From Chloroflexota bacterium (GTDB lineage Bacteria > Chloroflexota > Anaerolineae > B4-G1 > SLSP01): a stretch of DNA of 34,139 bases. This document shows positions 13,685 to 18,476 of the stretch, one piece after another (the first letter of the stretch is position 1; each line of letters begins with the position of its first letter). Made by a program: the position numbers and the translations under genes. The notes under the pieces were generated by a model that saw only the letters and a program-made list of their open reading frames with translations, was not told the DNA's origin and did no database searches. The DNA is taken from NCBI GenBank assembly GCA_009908585.1, contig JAAAOZ010000333.1, positions 1-34,139 on the forward strand, in the 5' to 3' direction.

Positions 13685-14830
13685 TCAGTAGCAATAAGAG
13701 GAAACTTCTGCGCCGTTGTTATCATAGAGGTAGCCACAATCCCCGCCATTATTCCATAACGCCTGGCCATTGCCAAAGCTGAAGCCGCAACTCTCTGGGT
13801 GATTTTCATTGGTGTACACGCGGCATTCCTGACCTGGCTGTAGCTCGAAATTAGGGAACCAAAAATCCTGGCCCGGATTACCGGCATTCAAGTGCCATCC
13901 AGCGAGGTTGACTGGGGAACCACCTGTATTCTTGATTACTGCATATTCATCGCTCTCAACTCGTTTCACAACTCCATCGTAGAAAATATAGCTGATTATG
14001 ACTTCTCCTGGCGCTGCTGGCGCTGCGGTTGCAGTGGCTGGTGGCTCAGTGGGGACTGGTGTAGATGGTGGCGGTGTGTTAGTTGGAAGGGGCTTAGGAG
14101 TTGCCGTGGGAGGGAGGGCGGTAGGTGTTGCTCCCCATAACCCCTGCTCATTCTCGCGCGCCTCGGCTTGTAGCTCGACAAATAGCTCCGAGTGTTTAAC
14201 ATCTGGAGGATAGGAACTCGCTTGGGCATACCCTTGCTTGACCAACTCGGCGTTGACAAACGTTCCATCCGCAAGATAGACGTAGCGGAGCAAGCGCCCA
14301 TATTGGTCAGTTTCTGATACATCCTTAACCAACCAGACCTCTTTCCCTGCTACCAGCTCCTTGTTAGCCTCTGTGGCTTCAGGACCCATCCATTCCACAG
14401 GTTTGTTAGGGTGTTTCGTTTCAGGGGTATCGATGCCGATGTACCGGACGGTTTGGGTCTCTCCGTCAATCCTCACTTTGATCGTGTCGCCGTCTACGAC
14501 GTTGATTACCTGGGCCTCCTGGGCGTCTTCTGGAATTGGAGGGGGTGTGGGCGTAGGGGTTCCTGTGGGAGGTGAGGTGCTAGTAGGTGAGGGCAGGGAC
14601 GTGTTGGTAGCAGCAATAGTTGGGGATGGTGTTTGGGTGGCCTCGACGATTTTTGTTGGCGGTACCGTGGCGGTGCTAGTAGGTGATGGTGTTGGGGTAG
14701 GTGTTGAGCTAGGTAATGCCAGGGTTCCGCAGCAGCACAGGCTGCATAGGAGTAGCAGGCCTGAGACAACAATGGAGATAAGAGGGACGGTCCGACCAGC
14801 GATATTGATGGGCTTTTTGAGAGTTTCCAT
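13685..14830 (-). CDS. Membrane-anchored thermonuclease (SNase) with Pro/Thr linkers and a C-terminal lamin-tail domain
   Basis: VVDGDTIKVRIDG..VRYIGIDTPE..DQYGRLLRYVY..NAELVKQGYA SNase motifs; LTD-like VIISYIFYDG..YAVIKNTGGSPVNLAGWHL; N-terminal TM helix. Confidence 0.9.
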   Translation of the reverse strand: METLKKPINIAGRTVPLISIVVSGLLLLCSLCCCGTLALPSSTPTPTPSPTSTATVPPTKIVEATQTPSPTIAATNTSLPSPTSTSPPTGTPTPTPPPIPEDAQEAQVINVVDGDTIKVRIDGETQTVRYIGIDTPETKHPNKPVEWMGPEATEANKELVAGKEVWLVKDVSETDQYGRLLRYVYLADGTFVNAELVKQGYAQASSYPPDVKHSELFVELQAEARENEQGLWGATPTALPPTATPKPLPTNTPPPSTPVPTEPPATATAAPAAPGEVIISYIFYDGVVKRVESDEYAVIKNTGGSPVNLAGWHLNAGNPGQDFWFPNFELQPGQECRVYTNENHPESCGFSFGNGQALWNNGGDCGYLYDNNGAEVSSYCY

Positions 14831-14917
14831 GGCTCACCTCTGTACTTCAATGGGTTTTGCACTTGCTATTTGAATTCAAGTTTATTTTATCACAAGCGCT
14901 GAGAAGGGGAAATGCGG

Positions 14918-16192
14918 TTATTTTGTCACTGGTTCGACCAAAATTTCCACCACAGCCTCATTCCCCGTGACCGCTGCGATACGAACCTCCACCACGTGCC
15001 CCGCAATCAGCGCGTGGATTCGCGTCTCGTCGTTGATCTCCTTCCGTGGGGGATCGACAGGGCGCGGTGTGGCCGTAGGACTGGCGGGGGTGGGGGTGGC
15101 CACCGCAGCGGCATGGCGGGTCTCAGCCAGGGCTAATTGCGCCTCGGCTATTTTCACAGCAAGGGCGTCTGGTTGGGGGTAAAGTTCTGCATTGAGTTGC
15201 TGGCTTATCTCAGTGGCTCGCGCCTCTAGCTCAGCCAGTTCCTGCGCGGCGAGCTGGTACCGCCAGTCATCACACGCATTTTCCTGCTGACAGCGATGGA
15301 GAGCGTCGCGACGATCCTGGATGCCGTTGTTGACAGCGGCTTGCTCGCTGCGGAGCGTGGCCAGGAGGATCGGGTCGGGCGTGGGCGTTGCAATGGCGGC
15401 GGCGTGGCGGGCCTCGGCCAGCGACAGCTCGGCTTCTGCCTGGGCGACGGTAGCCGGGTTCAGGTTCGCCGGCGTGGGAGTTGGGCCGGGTGTGGGCGTC
15501 AGGGTGGGGGTCGGCGTGGCGATCAGGCGGCGATAGGTGACGAGATCGGCGATCAGTTGGCCGGTGGTGATCGTATCGCCCGGCTCGATTAGGACCTCAT
15601 CAGGATCGTACACGTGGGGGATGCGGATCGTGACGGTCTTCGGCGTGGGCGTAGGTGTGAGCGTGGGCGGCGGCGGCTTGGGGAGAATCTCGGCGGTAGA
15701 GAATGCGAGAGCGGGCCACAGCAAGGGGAGCATCAGCGCTAAGGCGAGCGATCCGGTGGCCACCACCTCGCCGGTGGAAGCGGCGGGGATCTGCGCGATG
15801 AAGAAGCGCCAGGAGCCAGGCCAAAGCAATGGGACTCCCTCGGCGCCGACAATCATATCCACCAGCAGATGCGTCCCGTAGGCTGCCGTCAACCATACCC
15901 ATCCATCGCGGAAAATTAGCCACGTGAAGAGCGCTATCGCCGCGACCGCGAGAAGTGAGTGCGTGAGAGTGCGATGTCCCCAGCGTCTCTCGATTTGCTC
16001 TGAAGCGTAGGGGAAAAGCCTGCCGACGTGGCTGGCCGTCGTATCGACATCAGGGAGCAGCGCGAAGAATGCAGCGAACACAATCAGCACAGGATGAGGC
16101 TGACCTCCTATGAGGACGGCGCTCCACGTCAGGGGCAACAATCCAGCGACGATGTGAGATATAGCTCCCAGATGGTTTCTCAGATGTCGCAT
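14918..16192 (-). CDS. DUF457 (YdjM-like membrane metal-dependent hydrolase) fused to a HlyD/MFP-like lipoyl plus coiled-coil domain
   Basis: LLPDVD, HRTLTHSLL and THLLVDM motifs in the TM region; split barrel VLIEPGDTITTGQLIADL ... IHALIAGHVVEVRIA around a coiled coil; PT linkers. Confidence 0.7.
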   Translation of the reverse strand: MRHLRNHLGAISHIVAGLLPLTWSAVLIGGQPHPVLIVFAAFFALLPDVDTTASHVGRLFPYASEQIERRWGHRTLTHSLLAVAAIALFTWLIFRDGWVWLTAAYGTHLLVDMIVGAEGVPLLWPGSWRFFIAQIPAASTGEVVATGSLALALMLPLLWPALAFSTAEILPKPPPPTLTPTPTPKTVTIRIPHVYDPDEVLIEPGDTITTGQLIADLVTYRRLIATPTPTLTPTPGPTPTPANLNPATVAQAEAELSLAEARHAAAIATPTPDPILLATLRSEQAAVNNGIQDRRDALHRCQQENACDDWRYQLAAQELAELEARATEISQQLNAELYPQPDALAVKIAEAQLALAETRHAAAVATPTPASPTATPRPVDPPRKEINDETRIHALIAGHVVEVRIAAVTGNEAVVEILVEPVTK

Positions 16193-16234
16193 TTTTTTCT
16201 CTATAAGGGCGCCCAGAGAAAAATTCTCGCCATG

Positions 16235-17623: not shown

Positions 17624-18423
17624 GAGGTCCTCCTTGGTTCTGCTATGAGGTGCGGCCCATCTTTCCAGTGCAAAAGGCGCCCGTGGCCGTTTACGTGAAT
17701 GTAGGTGAGGGCTGAGGGCGTGAGGGGATCTAGATTGCGAGTCCAGGAACCAGAGTTGAAATAGTCCACCGGGGGAGCAGGTCGGTAGTAGTCAGGACAG
17801 TGAGAATGTCCCAGGACGATGGTTCTGATGTCATCGCCGGCGGCGATGTCTTGAGCGGCTGTGCGGTAGAGTTGGGTTGTGACGGTGCGGTAAAGTTGGG
17901 TAGCTGTGCCTACGAGGGCGATAGCTCCCGCCGGGGGAGCTGTGGCCAGCAGGGTCAAGCTGAGGAGGATTAGGCACGCCATCCGCTTCTTGAGCTGTTG
18001 GTTGTGCACCTGGTTGACGATGCTGGGAGGCTTACACACTAACGGACAGTAGCGATTGCCATGTTCGACGTGCAGATGCTCGTCTCGATAGTGATGGGAA
18101 AAAGTTGGAGCGGCGTCTATAAGATCGCAGAGCATGGCCTGAAGGTCACTCTCTGCGAGTTGCGGGTCGTGGTTGCCGGGAATTAGATGCAAATCGTTGC
18201 CGGCACGGCACCATTGACGTAGGGCGTTGAAAGCGGTGGGGTGTCGTTGTAAAGTTGCGCTAAGTGTAGCACAAGGATCACGGTTGCCCAGTTCGAACGT
18301 GTCGCCGGCGAGGACTAAACAATCAGCATCGGAACAGTAGAAGTCGAGTAAATCTGCGAGATCTTGATCAATGCAGGGACCGCCGCGTCCCAGGTGTAAA
18401 TCGCTGACGATCAGCGTTGCCAT
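17611..18423 (-). CDS. Calcineurin-like metallophosphoesterase
   Basis: SDLHLG, LAGDTFE, PGNHD, VLGHSH motifs; ATG at 18423 after GAGGAGGGG. Confidence 0.85.
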   Translation of the reverse strand: MATLIVSDLHLGRGGPCIDQDLADLLDFYCSDADCLVLAGDTFELGNRDPCATLSATLQRHPTAFNALRQWCRAGNDLHLIPGNHDPQLAESDLQAMLCDLIDAAPTFSHHYRDEHLHVEHGNRYCPLVCKPPSIVNQVHNQQLKKRMACLILLSLTLLATAPPAGAIALVGTATQLYRTVTTQLYRTAAQDIAAGDDIRTIVLGHSHCPDYYRPAPPVDYFNSGSWTRNLDPLTPSALTYIHVNGHGRLLHWKDGPHLIAEPRRTSCVC

Positions 18424-18446
18424 TGCTCCCCCCCCTCCTCGGCCCA

Positions 18447-18476
18447 ATTATACATTATTTGGAAAATTTTGAGTAA
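18447..18476 (-). promoter_or_regulatory. Promoter of the phosphoesterase-to-nuclease operon
   Basis: Minus strand TTACTC, 18-nt spacer, TATAAT (18452-18447), in an AT-rich spacer. Confidence 0.5.

Follow-up and report, generated by a model that had tools for sequence, protein, structure and literature searches.

DNA uptake by ComEC, EndA and ComFA relies on a nuclease on the outside, a channel in the membrane and an ATPase on the inside. The characterized FtsK/HerA ATPases of mobile elements, TraB being one, are to our knowledge DNA translocases. The crenarchaeal Ced system has a CedA channel together with CedB (PMC11868833), and TdtA, from the Thermus element ICETh1, is membrane-bound, shares its operon with nucleases that transfer requires, and drives DNA outward (PMC5365140). 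Here we compare with such systems a locus of four genes, g1 to g4, on a stretch of 34,139 bp (hereafter, the window) that makes up the entire contig C428 of a 2.67-Mb, 511-contig metagenome-assembled genome of the Chloroflexota. The window is a plasmid-like element or one resembling an integrative and conjugative element (ICE). Two of the four genes, encoding a tandem ATPase (g2) and a YdjM/DUF457 membrane protein with an adaptor-like extension (g3), are probably used by plasmids and integrated elements to handle DNA at the cell envelope.

Genes g1 to g4 are four open reading frames (ORFs) in the same direction, on the minus strand, spanning 13685-18447 of the window. The initial annotation had taken all four as the unit of interest; by the synteny test that the annotation itself had named, the four-gene operon is not the conserved unit, in that only the ATPase gene and the YdjM gene stay together everywhere. 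We collected 71 homologues of g2, which are constant in length and architecture and range from about 30% to 96% in identity. About 30 loci were fetched and their ORFs scored with the domains found in the window. In every locus with enough downstream DNA, i.e., about 20 distinct loci, the next gene on the same strand after the ATPase gene encodes a YdjM homologue. Because the YdjM gene follows the ATPase gene in every relative that could be assessed, the functional unit appears, on gene order, to be a two-protein envelope machine, g2 plus g3, on plasmids and integrated elements of Chloroflexota.

The full-length ATPase has a narrow distribution. The named relatives are all Chloroflexota (Caldilineaceae, Anaerolineales and Anaerolineae), as are the nine loci found among 185,579 species genomes. 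In a set of 401 genomes of the phylum, the full-length g2 family was found in the window's own genome only, the remaining matches being chromosomal FtsK. No relatives of g2 were found among the IMG/VR viral contigs, and a phage collection yielded short stand-alone YdjM genes only. The matches of g2 in the plasmid database PLSDB are limited to Streptomyces FtsK-like genes, at the level of the P-loop. The C-terminal half of g2, searched against 1.84 billion representatives, matches 52 clusters.

The ATPase (g2; 16235-17623, like its domains on the minus strand) has three parts. The first is an FtsK/HerA-type P-loop domain (aa 1-185; 17069-17623), with the Walker A motif GKTRSGKST, the Walker B motif LLIADE and an STQR motif. 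The second is an AAA+/STAND-like nucleotide-binding domain with lid helices (aa 186-410; 16394-17068), whose Walker A and B motifs are GERGSGRT and LLLLDN. The third, identified from AlphaFold 2 (AF2) helices and hydropathy, is a C-terminal transmembrane helical hairpin (aa 416-461; 16241-16378) that would anchor the protein. The initial annotation had described an FtsK/SpoIIIE domain, a degenerate P-loop and two membrane helices. All three are borne out in the window's protein, but the degeneracy does not extend to the whole family: the window has GERGSGRT, with Lys changed to Arg, and many relatives have GxPGSGKT. That is, the second P-loop appears to be degenerate in part of the family only.

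Sequence profiles and structural models both relate g2 to FtsK-type motors. The Pfam profile FtsK_SpoIIIE (PF01580) covers aa 3-90 only (8e-11), with AAA/STAND-type matches over aa 188-330, and profile matches in the PDB include FtsK (5e-9) and EccC (7e-7). In the family alignment, G7, S11, G12 and K13 are invariant, and D100 and E101 are found in at least 90% of the sequences. The AlphaFold model, with a predicted local distance difference test score (pLDDT) of 89.4, has membrane helices at residues 419-434 and 440-461. Its best fold match is to the stacked ATPase domains of EccC/EssC, with both domains covered (4nh0, 4n1a and 4lya; E about 1e-11), followed by the FtsK motor (root-mean-square deviation 3-6 Å, about 245 residues) and the coupling protein TcpA. 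The NCBIfam scores of g2 for type VII secretion, TraB and FtsK are far under their cut-offs; T7_EssCb, for instance, reaches 24 bits against a cut-off of 778. There is no N-terminal membrane anchor: the protein begins at the Walker A strand, and the anchor is C-terminal instead.

The second member of the pair, g3 (14918-16192, minus strand), begins with a five-helix membrane domain of the YdjM/DUF457 family (aa 1-170; 15683-16192), recognized by Pfam (PF04307; 1e-20, 74.4 bits against a gathering cut-off of 29), AF2 and topology prediction. This domain carries a conserved cluster of His, Asp and Glu residues, namely H13, D48, D50, E68, H73, H78, H108 and D112. A direct search with g3 returned 43 homologues, of which 39 were aligned; D48, S54, G57, E68, H78, H108 and D112 are invariant across these 39. 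From the positive-inside rule and the AlphaFold helices, the predicted topology is that of five helices with the N-terminus inside and the C-terminus outside. The His/Asp metal site of YdjM is thus predicted to lie at the cytoplasmic face, and the remainder of the protein outside the cytoplasm.

That remainder, which follows a Pro/Thr linker, is a predicted extracytoplasmic adaptor (aa 185-424; 14921-15640) identified with an AF2 model and Foldseek. The model of the extension (pLDDT 88.8) consists of strands at 187-216 and 391-421 and helices at 246-364, i.e., a split lipoyl (barrel-sandwich) domain built around four long helices that form a coiled-coil region. Foldseek matches it to EmrA, MacA, HlyD and Spr0693 at probabilities of 0.98-1.0 and E-values of 3e-4 to 6e-3, and also to MexA. 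These matches support the assignment of the modeled extension to the membrane-fusion-protein fold, which is known from adaptors of type I secretion and from those with which efflux pumps form a tube across the envelope. Between the linker and the lipoyl domain, neither a beta-barrel nor a membrane-proximal domain is predicted. Together with the YdjM match, this fold agrees with the earlier description of g3 as a DUF457 protein fused to a HlyD-like lipoyl barrel split by a hairpin.

Directly behind g3, g4 (13685-14830, minus strand) encodes a predicted signal-anchored nuclease, as first annotated, with an SNase domain (aa 105-233; PF00565, 1e-25, 90 bits against a cut-off of 21) and a lamin-tail domain (LTD; aa 271-380, 1e-17), both found with Pfam. 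PADLOC assigns it to PDLC01096, 'SNc+LTD' (7e-47). In an alignment with the Staphylococcus aureus nuclease, g4 retains the residues of the motifs DGDT, R..IDTPE and YGR, which we take to have catalytic and Ca2+-binding roles. Genes 3 and 4 are linked by the fact that an SNase domain is fused to the C-terminus of the adaptor in 22 of the 39 aligned g3 homologues. Single chains of YdjM, adaptor and SNase, of 573-631 aa, are found at the loci that we number L001 and L020 and in the L004 and L027 groups. The SNase-fused members are scattered over the tree of YdjM-adaptor proteins, with at least eight changes forced by supported branches, a distribution that seems to fit an old fusion that was repeatedly lost. 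The window's own g3 clade is without the fusion, and its sister lineage has it. The share of non-fused homologues, about 40%, may be inflated, as some of the 39 records are possibly truncated.

The gene g4 itself is missing from a related locus, L070, which has 327 bp where the window has 1255 bp. A second SNase-LTD paralogue, with a longer N-terminus, lies outside the operon (29745-31199, minus strand; Pfam and alignment) and adjoins type I restriction-modification genes. The two copies are 74% identical overall and near-identical in both domains. The absence from L070 and the near-identical second copy indicate that g4 is a recent insertion of a duplicated gene. A separate SNase-LTD gene directly behind g3 would, in this window, replace the fused nuclease of its relatives. 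As a gene separate from g3, the SNase-LTD gene is peculiar to this element. An origin of g4 as an integron cassette was considered and rejected, since visual inspection of its surroundings revealed no attC-like ends (RYYYAAC/GTTRRRY).

A comparison with L070 reveals a second kind of change. The Rep, ParM and g3-3' regions of the two elements share 95-96% nucleotide identity. Between them, window 15523-18539 and L070:182-3496 cannot be aligned as DNA, with both flanks 95% identical. At the protein level, identity is 31% for g1, 48% for g2, 45-70% for aa 1-240 of g3 and 96-100% for aa 241-424 of g3. This pattern indicates a single exchange that took in the metallophosphoesterase encoded by g1, the ATPase and the membrane domain of YdjM, with a breakpoint within g3. 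Exchange as a block in turn suggests that the three parts are co-adapted, and fits a contact between the g2 hairpin and YdjM. The alignments of this one pair of elements are suggestive of a specificity or conflict determinant, rather than of a slow-evolving housekeeping engine.

The exchanged block includes g1, which was called as an ORF from a TTG (17611-18447, minus strand) and has a likelier start at an ATG at 18423, preceded by GGAGG. From that ATG it encodes an LpxH-like calcineurin-type metallophosphoesterase of 270 aa (17611-18423), in line with the initial annotation (Pfam Metallophos, 3e-9; LpxH structure 5b49, 3e-5). Its closest relatives are LpxH pyrophosphatases, and its hydropathy profile has one hydrophobic insert, at aa 150-168. 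In an iterative search, g1 was found 5' of the ATPase gene in only two allele groups, window/L071 and L070/L007, in each of which it overlaps or abuts the start of the ATPase gene. The metallophosphoesterase was rejected as a core part on account of this distribution, and g1 appears instead to be an accessory, optional third part. Because it overlaps the start of g2, g1 may be translationally coupled to it, and the 31%-identical homologue at the same position in the L070/L007 allele indicates that g1 moves with the ATPase.

Outside the Chloroflexota, YdjM homologues are present on 97 PLSDB plasmids, nine of which were inspected. On five of the nine, an ATPase gene lies 5' of the gene for a long YdjM protein. 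Gloeocapsa pGLO7428.01 has genes for an ATP-binding protein, YdjM and a DUF87/HerA-like protein; Synechococcus elongatus p11801_1 shares this order and has a thermonuclease gene at a distance of 2 kb; Microcystis p1-NIES88 has an ATPase gene and then a long YdjM gene; and Allochromatium pALVIN01 has an ATPase gene, YdjM and then a CHAP hydrolase. On Thermus pTCCB09 (L063), about 5 kb are taken up by genes for an AAA ATPase, a TolC-family protein of 225 aa, a YdjM protein of 550 aa and, next to these, a thermonuclease. The other four plasmids, from Haliscomenobacter, Flammeovirga, Vibrio and B. thuringiensis, have YdjM without the ATPase. The five plasmids with both genes are small and are typed as non-mobilizable, and the module sits in their backbone beside par and rep genes.

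Profile alignments connect these modules with the Chloroflexota pair. Residues 222-462 of g2, including the hairpin, align by hhalign to the Thermus ATPase (94.7%, E 6e-8) and to the Gloeocapsa ATPase (96.8%, E 3e-10), and the YdjM domains of g3 and of the plasmid proteins align with 99.8% probability. These alignments indicate that the Chloroflexota pair is, as far as sequence profiles go, a fused and compact form of a multi-gene plasmid module present in at least three other phyla. The two versions are alike in the C-terminal half of the ATPase with its hairpin, in the YdjM domain and in gene order. They differ in that the Chloroflexota version has an additional FtsK-like domain fused ahead of the AAA ATPase, has no TolC-like gene, has its adaptor reduced to a lipoyl domain and a hairpin, and has the nuclease fused to the adaptor. 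Orthology of the N-terminal domain of g2 with the cyanobacterial DUF87 genes was also considered and is unsupported: the hhalign match (57%) covers the P-loop only, the superfamily being shared. Read by eye, the C-terminus of the Thermus YdjM protein has a lipoyl-like strand, a Glu/Arg-rich, coiled-coil-like stretch and a second lipoyl-like strand. Nine further Thermus plasmids of 19-25 kb match the YdjM domain, pTCCB09 being the one inspected.

The borders of the g1-g4 unit are clear. Upstream, a strong intrinsic terminator (18556-18587, minus strand; a 14-bp stem with 11 GC pairs and a T-run) ends an operon with a DdrB-like gene. Downstream, 3' of g4, a bidirectional terminator lies at about 13573-13623; its plus-strand part was found in a terminator scan, and its minus-strand stem, GACCTGACGGG/CCCGTCAGGTC followed by a T-run, was read by eye. 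Within these borders the genes are tightly packed, as had been noted earlier: g1 and g2 overlap by 13 nt, and the gaps are 42 nt between g2 and g3 and 87 nt between g3 and g4. The single promoter proposed in the initial annotation holds up less well. The AT-rich, promoter-like stretch at 18447-18476 (minus strand, predicted from sequence reading) consists of TTACTC, an 18-nt spacer and TATAAT; the -10 element is perfect, but the -35 element matches at 2 of 6 positions, and the stretch is not listed by a consensus promoter scan. An extended -10-like motif, TGaTAAAAT, read directly from the 87-nt gap (14884-14892, minus strand), may be a promoter of the inserted g4's own, and a weak terminator-like hairpin overlies the stop codon of g2. 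In view of the weak -35 element, the possible g4 promoter and this hairpin, transcription of g1 to g4 as one unit is plausible rather than firm.

The remainder of the contig is that of a mobile element. Its genes encode winged-helix Rep-like, DdrB-like, SWIM, ArdC-like and RadC proteins and a type I restriction-modification system, and the contig gene list includes a ParM-like actin (12002-12976). A separate TraB/FtsK-like translocase is encoded at 6504-7787 on the plus strand (FtsK_SpoIIIE, 6e-9); it aligns by hhalign with the N-terminal domain of g2 at 82%, and the element thus already has a candidate transfer motor. ParM-like genes adjoin the pair in the window, L004 and L070, and a separate TraB-like gene is present in the window, L001 and L004. 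Pfam reveals no ABC, RND or MFS transporter domain in g1 to g4, in their window neighbors or beside the pairs of relatives, and no TolC-type outer-membrane factor in the window or in the Chloroflexota relatives; a TolC-family gene belongs to the Thermus plasmid version alone. General Pfam scans of the window neighbors and relatives, which were not a dedicated search, gave no type VII component or WXG100 domain.

Among the relatives, conflict genes lie within 8 kb of the pair at nine loci (L001, L003, L006, L020, L021, L026, L027, L029 and L030). They include STAND NTPases (NB-ARC, nSTAND or NACHT with TPR or WD40), Mrr_cat proteins, a type I-E CRISPR-Cas system, a PIN toxin-antitoxin pair and a C5 methylase. 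This proximity may reflect defense islands or, there being no background control, the mere abundance of such genes in filamentous Chloroflexota. Many relatives lie near integrases and conflict genes without a TraB-like gene, and for most relatives on chromosomes no rep, par or TraB gene lies in the vicinity. In one subclade (L004/L005 and L027/L028), a divergent gene for a 348-aa tyrosine integrase lies about 200 bp 5' of the ATPase gene. At L027, two giant STAND genes flank this integrase together with the ATPase-YdjM pair and a PIN toxin-antitoxin pair, an arrangement that resembles a small remnant island. At L029:8001-9320, on a 114-kb contig, the pair is decayed, with the ATPase cut to 345 aa and YdjM to 88 aa, which indicates that the module can erode away in chromosomes. 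Peptidoglycan hydrolase genes lie one to three genes from the pair at three unrelated loci, encoding M23 (L004:13837-14748), Amidase_2 plus M23 (L026:11848-13783) and CHAP (L062, i.e., pALVIN01:6287-7174).

Of the functions put forward in the initial annotation, exclusion, defense and processing during transfer are each still plausible. As to what the pair does, we tentatively favor a DNA barrier, i.e., entry exclusion, anti-transformation or defense against competing DNA. In such a barrier, a ring of the g2 ATPase at the inner face of the membrane would dock on oligomeric YdjM, with the g3 adaptor as a stalk or tube through the wall. The ATPase would spend ATP to move DNA, or to present it, at the conduit formed by YdjM and the adaptor; a non-specific nuclease at or near the outer mouth would destroy this DNA; and the element would thereby gain protection from incoming or competing DNA. 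We prefer this reading because the nuclease is external and non-specific, because the allelic block is swapped, because a TraB-like motor is already present, and because many relatives lie next to conflict genes and integrases without transfer genes. That the nuclease belongs with the pair is argued by the scattered fusions, by the retained motifs and by the thermonuclease genes beside the pair on pTCCB09 and p11801_1.

Several points weigh against a barrier. The DNA of phages and of conjugative elements normally enters without exposure outside the membrane. An external nuclease would reach such DNA only if the motor were to expel it, for which we know of no precedent. To block transformation, a nuclease alone suffices and the ATPase is not needed. 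About 40% of the YdjM-adaptor homologues, some of them from truncated records, are without the nuclease, which indicates that it is not essential to the core activity. In g2, Pfam, NCBIfam and PDB matches give no gamma or winged-helix domain for reading DNA (KOPS, clt). The location of the module in the backbone of small plasmids without known transfer genes fits transfer at least as well. The enrichment in STAND and defense genes was judged without a background rate and may mislead, and the allele swap, which rests on a single plasmid pair, is no more than suggestive.

A close rival to the barrier, which we consider possible if rather doubtful, is DNA donation. Here, the FtsK-type motor would push the element's DNA out through YdjM and the adaptor, to a neighboring cell or to that cell's uptake system, by a route that needs neither a relaxase nor type IV secretion, and the nuclease would create or trim DNA ends. 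The presence of the pair in the backbones of small plasmids that are typed as non-mobilizable, with par and rep genes at its side, is in favor of donation, as are the ParM-like genes next to the pair in the window, L004 and L070. The peptidoglycan hydrolases beside the pair in L004, L026 and pALVIN01 point the same way, such enzymes being frequent companions of wall-spanning transfer machines. There is also precedent in the mobile-element FtsK/HerA ATPases that act as DNA translocases, namely TraB and TdtA (PMC5365140). However, exported DNA would not survive a non-specific SNase placed at the exit, and the separate TraB-like gene in the window, L001 and L004 would make a second transfer motor redundant. 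Donation is also at odds with the lack of nearby rep, par and TraB genes at most chromosomal relatives, and an allele swap in a conserved backbone would be unusual for a core transfer engine.

A role that does not involve DNA seems unlikely to us, although parts of the evidence suit it well. In this case, the ATPase would drive YdjM and the adaptor by MacB-like mechanotransmission, with the purpose of secreting or expelling a substrate other than DNA, or of remodeling the wall or the lipid layer. Lipid-linked molecules would be the substrates of the YdjM hydrolase and the LpxH-like pyrophosphatase, and the nuclease would serve as an optional head for clearing DNA outside the cell. The fold of the adaptor is shared with efflux and type I secretion adaptors, including Gram-positive partners of MacB; the best structural match of g2 is to EccC/EssC, a protein-secretion ATPase; g1 resembles LpxH, a lipid-nucleotide pyrophosphatase; and YdjM has a conserved metal-hydrolase signature. 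The homologues without a nuclease are also compatible with such a role, as are SNase-LTD proteins that stand alone, like that encoded at 29745-31199. On the other hand, the conserved neighborhood of the pair includes neither a transporter of the ABC, RND or MFS type nor a candidate for a secreted substrate. The nuclease is the sole recurrent extra domain, gained or kept many times, and the association of the module is with mobile elements rather than with loci for envelope biogenesis.

Least probable, in our estimate, is that only the ATPase-YdjM pair is a system and that g1 and g4 are independent cargo sharing its transcription unit: the insertion of g4 relative to L070, its near-identical paralogue and possible own promoter, and the absence of g1 from most relatives would allow this, but g4 stands exactly where relatives have a fused SNase, which is unlikely by chance, g1 overlaps g2, and a g1 homologue occupies the same site in the swapped L070/L007 allele.

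In cyanobacteria, Thermus and Chloroflexota, many plasmids clearly pass from host to host although typing classes them as non-mobilizable. A module that is conserved in such backbones, spans the envelope and is driven by energy is a concrete candidate for an unrecognized path by which DNA travels, or for an obstacle to such travel. The Chloroflexota fusions serve as Rosetta stones: with the FtsK-like domain joined to the AAA ATPase, and YdjM and the adaptor joined to the nuclease, they indicate which parts work together. To the wider module, the window contributes this fused form, the nuclease fusion and the observation of the allele swap. YdjM/DUF457, an uncharacterized family, gains a first functional context; separately, E. 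coli ydjM is mentioned in the literature on SOS genes. Both Thermus thermophilus and Synechococcus elongatus are genetically tractable, and because homologues are found on their plasmids, these hypotheses are directly testable. It is conceivable, though we would not yet count on it, that the module is an envelope-spanning DNA machine of a new class, with no relation to type IV secretion, TraB-only transfer or competence. Such a machine would combine an FtsK-type motor, an efflux-like conduit and a nuclease at the mouth, on plasmids and elements of several phyla without known transfer genes, and would serve these elements either to expel and shred competing DNA or to donate their own.

The claim that this combination had not been described is upheld by databases and literature. 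In PADLOC-DB 2.0, no system combines the parts of g1 to g4, no model matches g3, g1 is without a meaningful match, and g2 matches mad8 (1.6e-12) over the P-loop domain only. Full-text literature gave no account in which YdjM/DUF457 accompanies an ATPase or a nuclease, and nothing relevant on COG1988/YbcI, Chloroflexi TraB, a Thermus plasmid with TolC and thermonuclease, or DNA efflux. A 'DUF457' match in a paper on the Cap1 pore was discarded as irrelevant, being in fact DUF4579, matched by the start of the word.

Compared with the adaptors of efflux and type I secretion systems (EmrA, MacA, HlyD, AcrA/MexA and Spr0693), g3 shares the split lipoyl domain with an alpha-helical hairpin and the anchoring in the cytoplasmic membrane, and the homologous operon of pTCCB09 also has a small TolC-family gene. 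The anchor of g3, however, is a five-helix YdjM domain rather than a single helix or a lipid, and a beta-barrel or membrane-proximal domain is not predicted. In place of an ABC, RND or MFS partner, the energy would come from the FtsK/AAA tandem ATPase, and in many members a nuclease is fused.

With TraB of Streptomyces, TcpA of Clostridium and TdtA of Thermus, g2 shares an FtsK/HerA motor, attachment to the membrane and coding by plasmids or ICEs; TdtA, too, works from an operon that includes nucleases (PMC5365140). In contrast to these proteins, the motor of g2 is minimal, i.e., about 185 aa with no alpha or gamma domain detected, its anchor is C-terminal rather than N-terminal, a second AAA+-like domain is present, and the nuclease partner is predicted to be extracytoplasmic. 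The likeness to EccC/EssC is at the level of fold only, and consists of tandem P-loop domains, one of them degenerate, and a membrane anchor. EccC/EssC, however, are anchored N-terminally and have three or more FtsK-like domains, whereas the second domain of g2 is AAA+/STAND-like.

To ComEC and CedA we found no relation in sequence or fold; competence genes are not linked to the pair, and coding is by mobile elements rather than by the host core. The layout is nevertheless that of the ComEC/EndA/ComFA and Ced machines, with a nuclease outside, a polytopic membrane protein and an ATPase at the cytoplasmic face. Taken together, these comparisons lead us to rate the module, from its sequence features, as lying outside the described kinds of system, because it belongs neither to the tripartite efflux, nor to the FtsK/TraB, nor to the type VII systems, and has one part borrowed from each.

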